Below are positions 11,474 to 21,057 of a stretch of 64,000 bases of DNA, piece after piece (position 1 is the first letter of the stretch; the number at the start of each line of letters is the position of its first letter). A model generated the notes under the pieces. That model saw only the letters and a list, made by a program, of their open reading frames with translations, did not search any database and was not told the DNA's origin. The position numbers were made by a program, and so were the translations under genes. Source of the stretch: Eledone cirrhosa (taxonomy: Eukaryota); the NCBI GenBank assembly GCA_964016885.1, contig OZ024760.1, positions 34,534,001 through 34,598,000 on the forward strand, given 5' to 3'.

Positions 11474-11513
11474 TATGATTAACTCAAAATAATTGTTTCT
11501 ACTTTTGGCACAA

Positions 11514-14378
11514 GGTGGTATATCTCAGCTGTGGTAGGGAGTAGTACACTCTACACCCCAGTCTATGTAGTATATCTCTGCTGTCATAGGGAGTGACAGA
11601 CTACACCCCAGTCTAGGTGGTATATCTCAGCTGTGGTAGGGAGTGGCAGACTCTACACCCCAGTCTAGGTGGTATATCACAGCTGTGGTAGGGAGTGACA
11701 GACTCTACACCCCAGTCTAGGTGGTATATCTCAGCTGTGGTATGGAGTGGCAGACTCTACACCCCAGTCTAGGTGGTATACATCATCTGTGGTAGGGAGT
11801 GACAGACTCTACACCCCAGTCTAGGTTGTACATCTCAGCTGGGAGTGACAGATTCTACACCCCAGTCTAGGTGGTATATCACAGCTGGGAGTGACAGACT
11901 CTACACCACAGTCTAGGAGGTATATCTCTGCTGTCGTAGGGAGTGACAGACTACACCCCAGTCTAGGTGGTATATCACAGCTGTGGTAGGGAGTGACAGA
12001 CTCTACACCCCAGTCTAAGTGGTATATCTCAGCTGTGGTAGGGAGTGACAGACTCTACGCCCCAGTCTAGGTGGTATATCACAGCTATGGTAGGGAGTGA
12101 AAGACTCTACGCCCCAGTCTAGGTGGTATATCACAGCTGTGGTAGGGAGTGACAGACTCTACACCCCAGTCTAGGTGGTATATCACAGCTGTGGTAGGGC
12201 GTGATAGACTCTACACCCCATTCTAGGTGGTATATCTCAGCTGGGAGTGACAGAGTCTACACCCCAGTTAAGGTGGTATAACTCGGCTGTGGTAGGGAGT
12301 GGCAGACTCTAAACCCCAGTCTAGGTAGTATACCTCAGCTGTGGTAGGGAGTGACAGACTCTACACCCCATTCTAGCTAGTATACCTTAGCTGTGGTAGG
12401 GAGTGACAGACTTTACACCCCAGTCTAGGTGGTATATCTCAGCTGTGGTAGGGAGTGGTAGACTCTACACCCCAGTCTAGGTGGTATATCTCAGCTGTGG
12501 TAGGGAGTGAGACTCTACACCCCAGTCTAGGTAGTATATTTCAACTGTGGTAGGGAGTGGTAGACTCTACACCCAAGACTAGGTGGTATACTTCAGCTGT
12601 GGTAGGGAGTGAGAGACTCTACATCCCAGTCTATGTTGTATATCTCAGCTGTGGTAGGGAGTGGTAGACTCTACACCCCTGTCTGGGTGGTATATCTCAG
12701 CTCTGGTAGGGTGTGACAGACTCTCCACCCTAGTCTAGGTGGTATATCTCAGCTGTGGTAGGGTGTGACAGAATCTACACCCCAGTCTAGATGGTATACC
12801 TCAGCTGCGGTAGGGAGTGACAGACTCTACACCCCAGTCTAAGGGGTATATGTCAGATGTGGTAGACTCTACACCCCAGGCTAAGTGGTATATCTCAGCT
12901 GTGGTAGGGAGTGACAGACTCTACACCCCAGTCTAGGTGGTATACATCATCTGTGTTAGGGAGTGACAGACTCTACACCCCAGTCTAGGTGGTATATCAC
13001 AGCTGGGAGTGACAGACTCTACACCCCAGTCTAAGTGGTATATCTCAGCTGTGGTAGGGAGTGAGACTCTACACCCCAGTCTAGGTAGTATATTTCAACT
13101 GTGGTAGGGAGTGGTAGACTCTACACCCAAGACTAGGTGGTATACTTCAGCTGTGGTAGGGAGTGAGAGACTCTACATCCCAGTCTATGTTGTATATCTC
13201 AGCTGTGGTAGGGAGTGGTAGACTCTACACCCCTGTCTGGGTGGTATATCTCAGCTCTGGTAGGGTGTGACAGACTCTCCACCCTAGTCTAGGTGGTATA
13301 TCTCAGCTGTGGTAGGGTGTGACAGAATTTACACCCCAGTCTAGATGGTATACCTCAGCTGCGGTAGGGAGTGACAGACTCTACACCCCAGTCTAAGGGG
13401 TATATGTCAGATGTGGTAGACTCTACACCCCAGGCTAAGTGGTATATCTCAGCTGTGGTAGGGAGTGACAGAATCTACACCCCAGCCTGGGTGGTATATC
13501 AGCTGTGGTAGGGAGTGACAGACTCTACACCCCAGTCTAGGTGGTATATCTCAGCTGTGGTAGGGAGTGGTAGACTCTACACCCCAGTCTAGGTAGTATA
13601 TATATCTCAGCTGTGGTAGGGAGTGACAGACTCTACACCCCAGTCTAGAATGTATATCTCAGCTGTGGTAGAGAGTGTCAGACTCTACACCTCAGTCTAG
13701 GTGGTATATCTCAGCTGTGGTAGAGAGTGTCAGACTCTACACCTCAGTCTAGGTGATATATCTCAGCTGTGGTTAGGAGTGGCAAAATCTACACCCCAGT
13801 CTAGGTGGTATATGTCAGCTGGGGGTGGCAGACTGTACACCCAAGTCTAGGTGGTATATTATAGCTGTGGTAGGGAGTGGCAGACTCTACACCCCAGTCT
13901 AGGTGGTATATCACAGTTGTGGTAGGGAGTGACAGACTCTACACCCCAGTTTAGGTGGTATATCACAGCTGTGGTAGGGAGTGGCAGACTCTACACCCCA
14001 CTCTAGGTGGTATATCACAGTTGTGGTAGGGAGTGGTAGACTCTACACTCCAGTCTTGGTGGTATATCTCAGCTGTGGTTGGGAGTGACACACTCTACAC
14101 CCCAGTCTAGGTGTATATCTCAGCTATAGCAGGGTGTGGTAGACTCTACACCCCAGTCTAGGTGGTATATTTTAGCTGTGGTAGGGAGTGGTAGAATTTA
14201 CAACCCAGTCTAGGTGGTATATCTCAGCTGCGGTAGGGAGTGACAGACTCTACACCCCAGTCTATGTAGTATATCTCTGCTGTCGTAGGGAGTGACAGAC
14301 TACACCCCAGTCTAGGTGGTATATTCCAGCTGTAAGTGACAGAATCTACACTCCTGTCTGAGTGGTATATCGCAGCTA
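11514..14378. repeat. 52-bp minisatellite (~55 copies), consensus GGTGGTATATCTCAGCTGTGGTAGGGAGTGACAGACTCTACACCCCAGTCTA
   Basis: Directly visible tandem units, with deletion variants and a 554-bp higher-order duplication. Confidence 0.97.
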
Positions 14379-14841: not shown

Positions 14842-14875
<34 letters not shown>

Positions 14876-14877
<2 letters not shown>

Positions 14878-15783
14878 GGAAAAATTTGAACAGGGACAAA
14901 ACAGAGAGGCAGTACAACGAATGTTTATTAATTTCACGCTCTGGATAGTGGGGTGTTGGTGGGGGACGACGTTTCGGGCATAAGCCCTTCCTCAGGTGAG
15001 AAGTGTGTGGGAACAGAGTTCAAAGGGTGTGTAGGCGAGTGGTGGAGAGACATATAGCGAAAGGAAACGGTGCGAATGAAAAAAATAAAAATAAAAATAA
15101 AAATAAAGCATGATCAAAATACAAGGAATGAAATAAATTTAAATATAAAAGCATGATCAAAATAAACTGAAATTAAAAGGGGGGTAAAACAGGTGGTGGA
15201 GGGGTGTGGGGTGTGTAGGGGTGGTGGTGGTTGGAGTGGGGAGAGGCAGACGGGGGTCCGAGCAGGGAGGGTTGAAGGTGGTGTGTGTGTGTAGGTGTAC
15301 GTGTGTGTGTGTGTGTGTATGTGAAAGTAAGGGTTGGGGGAAGAACGGGGTTGCATGTTCAGGAAGAGGTGTGTGTGGGGGGTTTGTGGGTCGGAGTGTC
15401 TGTGCGTGTGTGGATAGAGGGGTGGGGGAGAGGAATCAGGAGGCTGAGGGTGTAAATATGTGGTGGAAAGCACGTGTGTGGGGGGTTTAAGCGTGTTGTG
15501 GGTGTAGGTGGCATGTGGAGAAAAACATTTTTTTGGGGTGTGTGTGCGGGTGAGTTATATAGGTGATTACGTAAGAGGATGGTTGAAAAGTTGGTAAAAT
15601 CCAAAGGTGTTTAGTCGATTCTGTGGTGGTGAATTTCTGCATGCGAGTATTTCATGAAGCGATGGTCGGAAGAGGAGATATGTGGGGTGCGCGCGCAACA
15701 GGAAGTGGTCAAGCAGTGGGAGTGCTGTGTGTCTGTTTGTGCTGGGAGGTGGTCAGAGGGCATAGCAGCAGTCGGCGGAGTGG

Positions 15784-15787
<4 letters not shown>
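14876..15787 (-). mobile_element. Penelope-like retroelement 3' remnant inserted in (TA)n
   Basis: Bounded by (TA)n on both sides. Carries a minimal hammerhead at 14968-14995. Its terminal ~80 bp recur, diverged and inverted, at 15830-15910. Confidence 0.6.
14966..14997 (-). ncRNA. Minimal type I hammerhead ribozyme (Penelope-type)
   Basis: Minus strand reads AC-CUGAGGA-A-GGGC-UUAU-GCCC-GAAAC-GUC^GU: intact core, 4-bp stem II, palindromic ACGU in place of stem III, but only a 2-bp stem I. Confidence 0.8.
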
Positions 15788-15833
<46 letters not shown>

Positions 15834-15949
15834 CCACTCTCAAGAGCGTGAACCTAATCAACTTTTATTTGTACTGCCTCTCTGTTTTTGTTCCCGTCCA
15901 AGTTTTCACTATATATTATATATTATATATATATATCTTAGCTAGATCT

Positions 15950-16120
15950 CCTGCATTTAATGGGAGAAAAAACTCTTGCGATCTCTGTCTTACTGAGGCC
16001 TATCACATAACTTCGTCAAGGCCACCCCCACCACCCCACCCTCCATCAATGACAGGAACGAGTTGGTTATCAGCTGCCACCACCACAGAGCGAGTTCCTT
16101 CGCCAACAGAATATTTGACC
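15950..16120 (+). mobile_element. Penelope-like element ORF C-terminal fragment (frameshifted)
   Basis: ARSPAFNGRKNSCDLCLTEAYHI, then after a frameshift SINDRNELVISCHHHR. This resembles the recalled CxLCLxE...LNxRxE...CRH C-terminal motif of PLE RT/GIY-YIG proteins. Confidence 0.6.
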
Positions 16121-16408
16121 CAGCTTAGCCCATCCTTTAGTCATGGTCCTCCCTAAAACTAACAAATTAATGGCATCATTAGTCCACCAAATAAACACCT
16201 ATAAGTTACCTCCCTTAGGTACAAATCCCACTGCAACTATACCTATAGGCTACCTCCCTACCCTACAGCTCCTGGTGGGATTCTTGGCTCTCCAAGGAGT
16301 TACCTCCCTTGAAACCCATCTCTATACAATAAGATAGTTTCCCTACAGGAAGCCATTTTGGTATGTGATAGGCACCAGTATTTAATATATTATATATATA
16401 TATATATA

Positions 16409-16733
16409 TGGAGGCACATGGCTTAGTGGTTAGAGCATTGGCCTTGCAATCAAAAGGTTGTGAGTTCAATTTTCAGACCGTGTGATGTGTTGTTTCCTTG
16501 AGCAAGACACTTTATTTCACATTGCTCCAGTTTACTCAGCTGTAGAAATGAGATGATAGGGACTGGGGTCCCTATCATTCCACTGCAAAGTGGTCGTGGA
16601 CGTGCCACGGAAAAAAAGCACCCAGCACTCACTGTGAATGAGGTTGGTGTTAGGAAGGGCATCCAGCTGTAGAAATCAACCCAGAATCAGTTCCCGTCCA
16701 ACCCTTGCAAGCAGGGAAAAGCAGACGTAAAAT
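16409..16733 (+). mobile_element. SINE family B, near full length
   Basis: A box TGGCTTAGTGG at 16419-16429, B-box-like GAGTTCAATT at ~16462. Homologous along its length to 3808-4145. Confidence 0.93.
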
Positions 16734-16746
16734 CATATAATATATA

Positions 16747-17720
16747 TCATCATCATCATTTTACGTCCGCTTTTCCCTGCTTGCAAGGGTTGGATGGGTC
16801 CTATTCAGCACAGCATCTCTCCGCTTGTCACGGTCGTCATCTCCTCGGTGAGTTTCAGCAATCTGAGGTCTGCTCTCACCACCTCCGCTCATGTCTACTG
16901 CGTTTTCCTTCCACTGGGATTTCTTGGCGGTCACCCTCCATGCGCATCACATGTCCATACCATCTCAGCCTTCCCTCCTGCACACCACAACTTATACCTC
17001 TTATACCCAGTTTCTTTCTCAACTCGTCCATGATTGGTTGTTCACACACATTGACATTGCACATCTAACGGAGCATACTTGCTTCATTTCTCTCCAGCCG
17101 TCGCATATCCTCTGCAGTTGCCGCCGATGTCTCACTACCATGCAGCATCGCGCATCTAACACAGGCATCATATAACCGTCCTTTCGTATGCAGAGAGAAA
17201 CCCTGCTTTGTCAACAAAGGAAGCAGCTCCCTAAACTTCTTCCAACCCGTCCTTATTCTAGATACTATGGCCTTGGAATCTCCCCCCCCCCCTCTCATGC
17301 TAATCTGATCAACTAGGTATCAACCACTTCTATAGAACCCACCTGCATTGGAAAAATGTGTCTATCACTGCAATTAATACTGCCAACTTTCCCTGTACAT
17401 CTACTGCACACATAATTTTCCCTACCTGTTAGTTTGCCTGCTATCCCACTACAAGATCTGCATTGCATACATTTTATGGAATTTATGTCAGTTCCTTTTC
17501 TACATATTGAACATGGCCATTTCCCTGATAGAATCGGAGTATTGTCCTCTCTTCTACTTATCAACACTTTTGTCTTAGCTATGTTCACTCTCAGTCTTCT
17601 TGATTCCAACTGCTGTTTCCATAGACAGAATTTATTCTCTAGCTCCTAAACTGATTCTGCTATAAGAGCCAGATCATCAGCATAGAGAAGTTCCCATGGG
17701 CATCCAGTCTTAAACTCCTG
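16747..17720 (-). mobile_element. RTE-clade LINE, 5'-truncated and frameshifted, with (TGA)n tail
   Basis: Minus-strand TGCPWELLYADDLALIAES (YADD at 17673-17684), LRVNIAKTKVL, Cys-rich WPCSICRKG...SIKCMQC...CSGI...YVCSRC, SRIRTGWKKFRELLPLL...KGRLYDACVR..MLHGSET and RLRWYGHVMRM. Confidence 0.93.
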
Positions 17721-17945
17721 TTATATATATATATATAAATTTGTGGGAGTGTATAAGTATAATACTAATTCTGTCCCTAAGTTTTTTTAATTCTCTGCAA
17801 AATATTATGTGGTCTCCTATGATATTGACAGTGTGTAAAGCTCTGAGGTCTTGGATTTTTAGCCCAAATTCTCTCATAGAGCTATCATTGTGCCACATGA
17901 TCATTATATATTATATATCAATACCTTTTGATGTATGTATGTATG

Positions 17946-17993
<48 letters not shown>

Positions 17994-18023
17994 ATCAAAA
18001 GATGGTTAAAAGAGTTCCAAGTA

Positions 18024-18090
18024 TTTTATTATGCGCATTTCAAAAACAAATATCATCATGAGATGATATCTGCGTTTTCATCAGATAAAA
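18024..18090 (-). ncRNA. Type I hammerhead ribozyme candidate
   Basis: UUUUAU-CUGAUGA-AAACGCAGAUAUCAUC(UCAU)GAUGAUAUUUGUUUUU-GAAA-UGCGCA-UA^AUAAAA: 6-bp stem I, ~16-bp stem II, palindromic AUGCGCAU stem III, AUA cleavage triplet. Confidence 0.75.
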
Positions 18091-18156
18091 TAGGGATACA
18101 TGATATGAAGGTTAAAAAACACTTGTGAATAGTGAAGTTTTAAATCAACATATGAT

Positions 18157-18221
18157 TTTATCTGATGAAAACGCAGGTATCATCTCATGATAATATTTGT
18201 TTTTGAAATGCGCATAATAAA
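18157..18221 (+). ncRNA. Type I hammerhead ribozyme candidate (second arm)
   Basis: CTGATGA at 18162-18168, GAAA at 18205-18208, then TGCGCATA^ATAAA. Stem I is UUUAU/AUAAA; stem II has two substitutions relative to the other arm. Confidence 0.7.
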
Positions 18222-18345
18222 TTGCTTGGAACTCTTTTAACAATCTTTTGATCTTATATTATTTATACTCCAGTCCTACAAACTGTAGAGTGCTACTTAT
18301 CCGATATTTGCATTGCTTTATTGTGCTACAATAAAACTCACCTCC

Positions 18346-18384
<39 letters not shown>

Positions 18385-18448
18385 GTAGAACACTGGAAGG
18401 TAATATCCGTAGTGGTAGAGCACTCAGTCCATGGGACAAGTTAGGTAG

Positions 18449-18637
18449 AAGTGGTTAAATAACAGTTAGTTCACCATACCGGGAACAATTGTTTCACCTT
18501 AGCGGATCCTCACCTCATAATGGACATGGTTATACGGTTAACCTTCCTGTTCCGTATAACCATGTCCATTACAAGCTGAGGATCCGCTAAGGTGAAACAA
18601 TTGTTCTCGGTATGGTGAACTAACTGTTGTGTAACCA

Positions 18638-18640
<3 letters not shown>
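18449..18640. repeat. Long inverted repeat (89-bp arms, 14-bp loop) with a hammerhead-like motif
   Basis: 18449-18537 versus 18552-18640. The plus arm contains AG-CTGAGGA-TCCGCTAAGGT-GAAAC-AATT-GTT^CT at 18574-18607. Confidence 0.9.
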
Positions 18641-18672
<32 letters not shown>

Positions 18673-19144
18673 AGACATTACAGCAATACAACAGGAGGAA
18701 ACATAATAGTACCCCTGATGATGTCACAGATGTGTGACGAAAAAACTTTGATAGACTATATATATATATTTATATATATATTTTTAACTGTTGGTCAATC
18801 AATGATAAACATTGATAGCCAGCTAAATTAACTATAGGGATATGAAATGTATAGAAGCGAAAGTCAACCCAAACCAAACAGTGAGTGTGCTATTATTTCT
18901 GGCAATATTATAACAACATGACCCTCCCCAAATATAACAATGTATATTTATATATACTTATATCAGACATTTAAAATGTCATATTGATCTTTAATATTTG
19001 GTGTTGTTTCTAAATAGTAGATTTTCCATGGGGTCATATTGGTATAGGTGGGGATAGAGTGATGTTTTGACCATTTAGTAGTGGACAAATTGGCACCACT
19101 ATTATATATCTTTCATTACATATGCATGTGTGTGTACATATAAT

Positions 19145-20319
19145 ACTAGACCTGAAAAATGCGCAAGCTCAAAAGAGCCACAGAAGACCTATGGCGAAAC
19201 TCTCTGCAATGGGTATGAGGGATGATCTTTTAAACTTCATTCTCAACCGAAAAGTGGTAGTCACTGTTCTAGGACAGCATTCTTCACCATATGAGATGTC
19301 ATCTGGTGTACCACAGGGATCTGTTCTTGGTCCCCTTTTGTTTCTGGCATCTATTAATGACATAGATGCCAACTTAAAGAATGCCACGGTACTGAAATAT
19401 GCAGATGACATCAAGCTGTACCTTGAAATCAAAAGGACTGATCCTGAAATCTACAACTCTTTCTTACAATCAGACCTGGACACAATGCAGCAATGGATCA
19501 CAGACTGGCAACTGAAGCTGGATGTGGACAAGTGTACCACCATGCATTTTGGGAGGAAAAATCCAGCGTCCACTTACTCCCTCCACAATACTGATATCAA
19601 GAAGTCCTCTTGTGAACGTGACCTGGGCATTACTGTCAGCAGCGATTTGCGTTGGACAAAGTATGTCTCTAAGATTGTCAAGAAGGCCGGGGGTGTCTTG
19701 GCATCACTCAGCAAGACCTGTGTTAGCCGCTCTCCAGCCATCTATTTAAAGCTGTATACAGCTATGGTACGACCACACTTGGAATTCGCATCATCAGTCT
19801 GGAACCCCTATCTTGCGGAGAACATTGACCTCCTGGAAACTGTTCAGAGACGTGCAACCAAGCGCATACCTTCCATCAGACACCTACCATACTCTGAACG
19901 CCTAGCTTCCCTGGGCATGGATTCATTGAAGCCCCGACGTCTGGCAATGGACTTAGTAAACACCCACAAAGTTATTAACCATCTCGCCAACAACAACCCT
20001 GAACACCTTTTTGATCTCCATGTGTCTAACACACGTGGACATGCCTACAAAATCAGAAAACAGCACAGCTCCCATGACTTTCGGAAACATTTTTTCACGC
20101 TTAGAGTTGCTGAAGCATGGAACAAACTGCCTGCGTCAGTTGTTAGCTGCCGAGACACTGCATCCTTTAAAACCCTCATGCTTCCCGAAATTCGCCAAAA
20201 CTACACCTGATGTCTCCCTTCCATACACATGCACACAGGTGTATATCATGACTTATGCACTGTTCATTTATTATAACATTCTGTGGCTCTTTAGAGCTTA
20301 TGCATTTTTCAGGTCTAGT
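19145..20319. repeat. 41-bp inverted repeats (38/41 identical) bracketing the RT fragment
   Basis: ACTAGACCTGAAAAATGCGCAAGCTCAAAAGAGCCACAGAA (19145-19185) versus TTCTGTGGCTCTTTAGAGCTTATGCATTTTTCAGGTCTAGT (20279-20319). Confidence 0.93.
19186..20278 (+). mobile_element. CR1/L2-group LINE fragment: C-terminal ~340 aa of ORF2 (RT) uninterrupted, plus partial 3' UTR
   Basis: ORF 19122-20210 contains SSGVPQGSVLGPLLFL, KYADDIKLY, LQSDLD...W, ERDLGITVSSDL, YTAMVRPHLEFASSVWNPY, VQRRATK, YSERL and TRGH..K...RKHFFTLRVAEAWNKLP. The endonuclease and N-terminal RT domains are missing. Confidence 0.95.
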
Positions 20320-20736
20320 TTAATGTTTTTTTAAGGCAACGCTTGTAACTCTAGTTAAACATGATATATATTAATAAATTGTCGTTGTAATGTAATTAGA
20401 TTATATAATTGTTACTTTATAAATGATCTTATAAATATTATTGTAAGATGTATAAAAATATTTTCAGACTTTTAATATAAACAACTACAAAAAACAATCA
20501 ATATCAAATAAATATATTTTACATAATAATTGTTATAGTTGAATTAATAAAAATTAAATATTACATACAAATAGTCTAACATAATAATAAAAAAAAATAA
20601 TCTAACATAAAACGAACAATAATATGGACAAATATACAAGTAAATATGATACAACCAATATTATAAGCATGTTATAACGAACTGAAAAAAATTAGTTAAT
20701 TTAAATTTAACAAATTATATATAAATTAACAATATA

Positions 20737-20907
20737 ACTTACCAAAATGAGAAAAATATTTTGATGATAAACGACGAAATACAGGAGGAAGATTCGAAAG
20801 CGAAACGATAAATAAACGTGCAAACAAAATGGCGGATGCTTTTGAGCAACAATTACTCTCGTTGGTTGATTAGCCAATAAGACGATGAAATTAGCCAATA
20901 AGACGAT
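20737..20907 (-). promoter_or_regulatory. Promoter-like cluster: two AGCCAAT boxes, a YY1-type motif and a downstream splice donor
   Basis: CCAAT at 20874 and 20895 within an 18-bp direct repeat, AAAATGGCGG at 20826-20835, minus-strand G|GTAAGT at 20743/20742, and local CpG enrichment. Confidence 0.4.
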
Positions 20908-21057
20908 ACATTACAAAACATGTTTGGGAAGGATCACCACGGCCAGCGAAACCCCTTGAATATTTTATTCACAAGCAACGCATATATGTCAGAACACGCA
21001 GACTTAAAACATTCTGTTGTTAGTCACTGCGTGTCTAACAGATTATTTACATAATAA

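Follow-up and report, generated by a model that had tools for sequence, protein, structure and literature searches.

What brings several hammerhead-ribozyme-like motifs of unrelated sequence together within about 4 kb of the Eledone cirrhosa genome? The question is raised by a 64,000-nt stretch of contig OZ024760.1 (assembly GCA_964016885.1, positions 34,534,001 to 34,598,000, forward strand; hereafter the window, with coordinates counted from its first letter), in which an earlier note, made from the letters alone, described four such cassettes, each beside a (TA)n run, as a (TA)n-targeted hotspot of ribozyme-bearing retroelements. The interval very probably consists of four 5′-truncated insertions of endonuclease (EN)-bearing Penelope-like elements (PLEs), each carrying the hammerhead motif of its family's terminal repeat and lying in TA microsatellites that the endonuclease of these elements likely nicks; the locus itself is ordinary repeat debris.

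The window was scanned on both strands for CUGANGA…GAAA core pairs, with a stem II cut-off of at least 2 bp. Twelve core–GAAA pairs were found, and the five of them that have such a stem II are all confined to 14.9–18.8 kb, with none elsewhere in the 64 kb; dinucleotide shuffles of 14.8–18.8 kb (n=300) gave a mean of 0.08 motifs and a maximum of 1. The four unrelated cassettes are thus borne out as five motifs, with the core C3 at 14995(-), 18084(-), 18162(+), 18576(+) and 18715(+). Among the positions listed in the earlier note, 18576(+) and 18715(+) are indeed core C3, whereas 14968(-) marks the C at which the first motif would be cleaved, and 18024(-) and 18157(+) belong to stem I in motifs two and three. 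The palindromic stem III sequences it had named, ACGU, AUGCGCAU and ACAAUUGU, were all found. A strict type I test, which asks for a near-palindromic stem III and ≥2 bp in stem I, is passed by four of the five motifs, and the description as minimal type I does not extend to the 18715 cassette, which fails it. A TA tract does adjoin each of the four elements, termed here A to D; the TA run after the 18715 motif, taken as the neighbour of the fourth cassette, is instead internal to element D, which reaches ~18941. As for the proposed Infernal-type check, an Rfam scan of the window returned 41 matches at E≤5, none of them to a hammerhead family; its microRNA (miRNA) matches, with scores below gathering, were rejected as foldback or TA artefacts.

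The identity of the cassettes emerged from their genomic copies. Genome searches with each cassette, as had been proposed, yielded 1,713 first-look candidates for family A, 1,164 for B, 957 for C and 1,311 for D, numbers that are not copy numbers, only 40 candidates having been scored per query. Since foldback queries favour foldback matches, the searches for A and B were repeated with one arm plus tail, giving 30 loci each; the window copy is one of these, and a few had already been fetched before. In all four families longer copies lead upstream into a GIY-YIG EN, and in B, C and D also into a reverse transcriptase (RT); the window cassettes are therefore taken to be 5′-truncated PLEs. The RT lies upstream of a C-terminal GIY-YIG in B (L189, L190) and D (L195), while in C the two are split between loci (RT in L125, EN in L122). 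Family membership and this linkage are accompanied by 3′ ends fixed at TA and by 5′ ends whose extent ranges from a few nt to >1.4 kb and which run into EN/RT coding sequence. Atlas clusters similar to the B and D proteins at 0.94–0.97 carry HTH_animal in 19–98% and GIY-YIG in 13–48% of their members. The claim of several mutually unrelated, TA-targeted, hammerhead-bearing retroelement families, with TA flanks and PLE RT/GIY-YIG linkage, is therefore upheld in the form of four PLE families.

Motif tests assign A and B to the Hydra type and, more tentatively, C and D to the Neptune/Nematis type. Long B copies (L189, L190) reach both RT and EN; L190 has a DKT motif and a CxCx5C linker, and its RT segment was judged by eye to be homologous to the printed Hydra-1_Obim alignment. 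Long A copies (L199/L176) reach the GIY-YIG EN ~1.2 kb upstream, the DKT and CxCx5C linker regions being absent or cut in the A copies fetched. In both families the EN has a CxxC before the conserved E and a CxH after the conserved N (L173 and L176/L199 in A, L189 and L192 in B). For C, six of the 29 other loci are longer than the window copy, and when these were fetched at 8 kb, L122 led to a GIY-YIG EN with a Cx4CxxC linker and L125 to an RT; a Cx2-5CxxC linker before GIY-YIG is found in both, a motif that does not separate Neptune from Nematis. The long D copies L193/L195 hold RT and C-terminal GIY-YIG; in the linker before the latter, the CxxC half alone is intact, in the single long copy L195. 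Other Hydra-like RT/EN fragments, unrelated to these, lie at most a few kb from queried copies (L187, L196, L198, L122, L124), evidence that many PLE families occur side by side.

The foldbacks of families A and B join two arms head to head, only one of which bears a tail. Family A (17992–18348), bordered on the left by a (TA)n tract (17934..17991), comprises a tail-less inverted arm on the minus strand (17992..18154) with an intact hammerhead (C3 18084, A17 18030, stem III AUGCGCAU, 8-bp stem I and long stem II), a forward arm on the plus strand (18155..18267) with a second hammerhead (C3 18162, A17 18216, 5-bp stem I), and a plus-strand tail of ~81 nt (18268..18348), present in a single arm only as mapped from the inverted-arm ends. 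A (TA)n tract (18349..18381) separates this tail from that of family B (18382–18639), which is ~62–64 nt long, again in a single arm only (18382..18445, minus strand), and is followed by the forward arm (18446..18545, minus strand), where the family alignment places a C3 to G change of the core at 18513, and by the inverted arm (18546..18639, plus strand) with a Hydra-type hammerhead (C3 18576, U17 18605, stem III ACAAUUGU), in which a U·U precedes a 2-bp stem II and stem I is weaker than in the family majority. The 18576 cassette is thus a foldback too, with a second-arm core at 18513(-), which goes beyond the earlier note. A tail-less inverted arm was found ≤1.5 kb upstream in 20/30 loci of each family; it ends at query position 108 in 15/20 cases for A (100–109 in 20/20) and at position 92 in 16/20 for B. 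TA follows the tail in 28/30 A and 27/30 B loci and flanks the inverted arm in 14/20 and 17/20, respectively. For 9/27 tail arms of A the start falls on an ATAT stretch, -67 to -70 relative to the core, and several arm junctions are palindromic; across 44 two-armed insertions both arms mostly carry the same subfamily variants (e.g. 6/7, 5/6). In the 38 two-armed B insertions arm differences are mostly private to one arm.

The C3 to G change recurs in 10/85 family B arms, usually in one arm only (L031, L034, L040, L046, L060); as the change creates a short direct repeat at the site, its recurrence may reflect a templated RT error hotspot. In a lizard PLE, C3G abolished cleavage (PMC11167929).

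Family C is represented by a 5′-truncated 3′ untranslated region (UTR)/pseudo-long terminal repeat (pLTR) of a Neptune/Nematis-type PLE (14876..15786, minus strand), with one (TA)n tract at its 3′ end (14845..14875) and another (15787..15830) at its truncated 5′ end. Its minimal type I hammerhead (14966..14997, minus strand; C3 14995, C17 14968) has an unpaired base before a 4-bp stem II, an ACGU stem III and a 2-bp stem I, with the core intact in 30/30. The 3′ 200 nt are 99% identical among the 39 other matches listed, and the family is described as very young; its copies have a single fixed 3′ end and scattered 5′ ends, TA lies ≤20 nt from the common 3′ end in 30/30 loci, and an inverted arm of its own was seen in none of the 29 other loci. 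Its 3′ non-coding region is AC-rich and ~1.5 kb long, and none of the three translated minus-strand frames of the window copy showed a PLE motif because the sequence is 3′ UTR. Beyond the second tract, 15831..15905 (plus strand) is the 3′ stub of an element from a subfamily sister to C, 89% identical to L218, where the full motif is present; it is a fifth PLE insertion, cut just downstream of the hammerhead, with the ribozyme gone.

Family D, separated from B by a (TA)n tract (18640..18669), is the 5′-truncated 3′ end of a PLE (18670..18941, plus strand) with C3 at 18715, a 6-bp stem II and the internal TA run near 18757; its hammerhead differs from the family majority by two substitutions (position 2.1 and stem III). 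Inverted segments are present in this family without one shared tail boundary, and a 185-nt tail is not claimed, as these segments begin at several places. Three identical D copies spaced ~1.7 kb apart (L085–L087, C5:8.77 Mb) are probably a local tandem duplication.

How the foldbacks arise is suggested by their two ends. Both strands of a (TA)n tract would be nicked by the RT-EN protein; copying of the element RNA into the first cDNA would begin at its far 3′ start, and the second cDNA, primed at the other nick, would begin within the RNA, 60–80 nt further upstream. Both would stop early and be joined at short microhomologies. The TA left on both sides would regenerate the target, so that unrelated families would pile up, and the separation of A, B and D by TA alone is as expected from this. 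In full elements, a tandem precursor RNA would be cut by a hammerhead dimer formed via the palindromic stem III. Two different parent RNAs for the two arms were considered but gained no support, since the A arms mostly share variants and the B differences, many of them at CpG, resemble post-insertion decay.

Other origins of the same cassettes differ widely in probability. That the inverted arm arises where an antisense template self-primes or folds back, and not from a second target priming, is unlikely, though not remotely so: such self-priming was proposed for rotifer PLEs from junction palindromes (PMC3846280), palindromic A junctions are in line with it, and variants common to both arms fit it equally well. 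On its own, however, it leaves unexplained the fixed internal arm end flush with TA, and two RT start sites flanking the tail are reported for a lizard PLE in vitro (PMC11167929). Very improbable, and largely refuted, is that the cassettes are non-autonomous retrozymes amplified through circular RNA, the other origin that the earlier note had entertained. Short units, type I hammerheads and palindromic stem III do recall retrozymes, which reportedly derive from PLE pLTRs (bioRxiv 10.64898/2026.07.22.740005); however, these units were nowhere found arrayed head to tail in the window, the variable 5′ ends lead into EN/RT coding sequence, unlike retrozymes, which would form non-coding head-to-tail arrays of 150–450 nt units, each with a hammerhead, and the sole tandem seen is the 1.7-kb triplication holding D. 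Least probable of all is that A and B are foldback DNA transposons resembling miniature inverted-repeat transposable elements, with hammerheads by chance. They do have long inverted arms of 92–95% complementarity inserted in TA, but the two arms are unequal, one of them alone having a tail, junctions differ between copies, an inverted arm is missing from the nearest 1.5 kb in 10/30 loci of each family, and both families extend into PLE open reading frames; these single-armed copies and those linked to coding sequence refute the idea.

Several results weigh against the reading as truncated, hammerhead-bearing PLEs, or against parts of it. Two-start priming is not distinguishable here from antisense-template self-priming. 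RT was recovered in none of the three long A copies fetched, which gave EN alone; Pfam reported a sub-threshold GIY-YIG in 2/6 PLE fragments and no match in 4/6, and also missed the uncropped L122 frame. The clade labels derive from motifs, not from a tree, and the tails of A and B (~81 and ~62 nt) exceed the 30–40 bp given for published Hydra elements (PMC8557442). The core conservation above background that the earlier note had looked for within families holds weakly for A, with 12/957 core mismatches (1.3%) against 233/9035 at other positions (2.6%, p=0.011); it is weaker still for D (1/308 vs 32/1844, p=0.076) and B (22/935 vs 170/6538, p=0.74), and C is uninformative (0/330 vs 2/4620). 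These counts exclude duplicate loci, come from copies selected for similarity and include arms that are not independent of one another; stronger core conservation would not be expected of dead copies. When two copies were co-folded, the active dimer was the minimum-energy fold for A(−) alone of five motifs, the C and B cores pairing with flanks and D folding without stems I and III.

The case for the hammerhead fold, built on sequence comparison across families, is nevertheless strong. It draws in part on a sample of 55 systematic 10-kb tiles (550 kb) of the 3.0-Gb assembly, with three shuffles as control; the tiles held 55 loose and 39 strict motifs and the shuffles 10, 17 and 16 loose and 2, 1 and 2 strict, so that stem III plus stem I was passed by 39/55 loose motifs in the former and 5/43 in the latter. 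All fetched loci together gave 279 distinct strict contexts forming 38 clusters, of which the 16 present in at least 2 loci were kept and 22 dropped. Across these 16 families stem I positions 3–6 are paired in 45/64 (shuffle mean 22.5, maximum 37), a test inflated by an optimised register and by kinship among families, and the stem III palindrome is perfect in 12/16 clusters. The 11-nt core is intact in 75/87 arms of A, 64/85 of B, 30/30 of C and 27/28 of D.

Cleavage of the window copies is another matter. The earlier note had invoked cleavage as dimers through the palindrome; in cis this does not apply here, as each of A and B has its two hammerheads on opposite strands, where no cis dimer can form, and the A and B read-through RNAs are predicted to fold as one long hairpin (~-160 and ~-157 kcal/mol) in which the core is buried. 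The window copies are therefore likely passengers that no longer cut, by reason, as modelled, of the foldback hairpin in A and B, mutation in D and in one B arm, and the lack of a tandem partner for C. For a lizard PLE, hammerhead cleavage was dispensable for insertion in vitro (PMC11167929).

Is the cluster exceptional? In the tiles, strict motifs have a density of 0.71 per 10 kb (bootstrap 0.45–1.0), or one per ~14 kb, which extrapolates to ~2×10^5 in the genome (1.4–3.0×10^5). The maximum number of motifs in any 4 kb of a tile was 0 in 25 tiles, 1 in 17, 2 in 10, 3 in 2 and 4 in 1. Of the 39 strict motifs 35 lie ≤250 nt from a (TA)6, compared with 45% of random points in the same tiles, and beside family copies the density of other-family motifs is 1.84 per 10 kb (47 in 255 kb). 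TA targeting therefore stands, whereas "hotspot" overstates the case, given a genome average of ~0.7 per 10 kb and ~1.8 beside PLE copies; five motifs in 4 kb are an upper-tail pile-up of general clustering. The cluster stands out in the window because ~37 kb of the latter is one satellite; other satellites fill much of the remainder. Five motifs in 4 kb, where the mean is 0.4 and 0/55 tiles reach five, could be taken to mark a special ribozyme cluster kept by selection for a role in the host. This is highly unlikely: one tile has four motifs and two have three, the motif count tracks the TA-tract count across tiles (Spearman 0.63), the window copies carry damaging changes, and their neighbours are other repeats and a satellite. 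In tiles L219, L234 and L254 a recurring family with the core and a short stem II, whose stem III fails the strict test and which often occurs as opposite-strand pairs, is possibly a further hammerhead variant.

A wider proposal, to which we give somewhat less than even weight, would combine three points: that the genome holds 1.4–3.0×10^5 PLE hammerheads in at least 16 families, above cited counts; that the long-end/short-end rule of the Hydra type reflects double priming on one parent RNA; and that the hairpins are sources of double-stranded RNA (dsRNA) rather than ribozymes. If true, the genome would be seeded with tens of thousands of perfect hairpins as dsRNA sources. The high density also cautions that a hammerhead hit or miRNA-like hairpin in a genome of this sort will as a rule be a PLE stub.

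The rest of the window is likewise repetitive. Between C and A, 16411-17720 has a tRNA-like head of a short interspersed nuclear element (weak Rfam tRNA match at 16416-16484), followed by a fragment resembling a long interspersed nuclear element, presumably RTE, with a 44-nt inverted repeat at 16693-16798. Beyond D, an RT fragment (19071-20210; Pfam RVT_1, E 1.8e-18), which we take to be CR1-like, sits between ~50-nt inverted repeats of another high-copy repeat, whose sister copies hold an unrelated ~350–600 nt spacer. This AT-rich repeat (19135-19185 and 20267-21043; 989 candidates) has internal inverted repeats, and no hammerhead was seen in its window copy. Satellites occupy 12-2610 (period 14/29/43 nt), 11513-14333 (52 nt) and 21612-58258 (31 nt), the last with ~1,160 copies and higher-order structure.

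The PLE unit with 5′ truncation, an adjacent inverted copy and a one-sided tail is known (PMC8557442; PMC3846280), and for the lizard element RT has been shown in vitro to start at two sites, one on either side of the tail (PMC11167929); A and B depart from this published anatomy in tail length alone. A TA-targeting, hammerhead-bearing Hydra PLE has been published from Octopus bimaculoides (Hydra-1_Obim; Craig et al. 2021, PMC8557442), so that the label "uncatalogued" given by the earlier note is apt for the families and not for their kind. A literature search for cephalopod or octopus hammerheads found no dedicated study beyond Craig et al., one twister paper being matched; the main text of a 2026 O. 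vulgaris repeat paper contains neither "hammerhead" nor "ribozyme", and its supplements and Repbase may list A–D. As described by Craig et al., Hydra-clade PLEs resemble A and B in the C-terminal GIY-YIG, the (TA)n targets and the CxxC/CxH around the E and N of the EN, and B also in the DKT motif and CxCx5C linker; alike are the U·U at the stem II base, the 6–10 nt near-palindromic stem III, the A/U at position 17 and the inverted 5′-truncated copy. The U·U of B was accordingly dropped as a new variant, being common in their Hydra table. The hammerheads of Hydra-1_Obim printed there differ in sequence, so A and B are other families, and A further departs from the Hydra PLEs described in its ~1.2-kb non-coding 3′ region and long stem II. 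Family C shares RT, a Cx4CxxC linker, then GIY-YIG, and the microsatellite bias with Neptune/Nematis PLEs, from whose published descriptions it is set apart by its AC-rich ~1.5-kb non-coding 3′ region (PMC8557442).

The four families, from two lineages and with exactly mapped element ends and tail boundaries, form a resource. They include the very young family C and, in A, a hammerhead whose predicted dimer is the active fold, and they open PLE priming, inversion and the role of the hammerhead to test. Two features merit pursuit: hammerheads at very high density, and the rule of two ends, mapped here with precision. The pLTR hammerheads of metazoan PLEs (Cervera and De la Peña 2014, PMC4209133) likewise combine a base left unpaired before stem II with a short stem I and a palindromic stem III, and occur mostly as solitary copies and as opposite-strand pairs 100–700 bp apart; thousands per genome are reported there (~9,000 in Xenopus tropicalis), against ~2×10^5 extrapolated here with a different descriptor. 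Metazoan non-LTR retrozymes (PMC7229834; bioRxiv 10.64898/2026.07.22.740005) share the type I hammerhead and a likely PLE-driven mobility, but they are non-coding head-to-tail arrays, whereas the elements of the window are dispersed truncations of coding elements. The anatomy, the TA targeting and the hammerhead type are thus already published, and the families themselves appear to be new.

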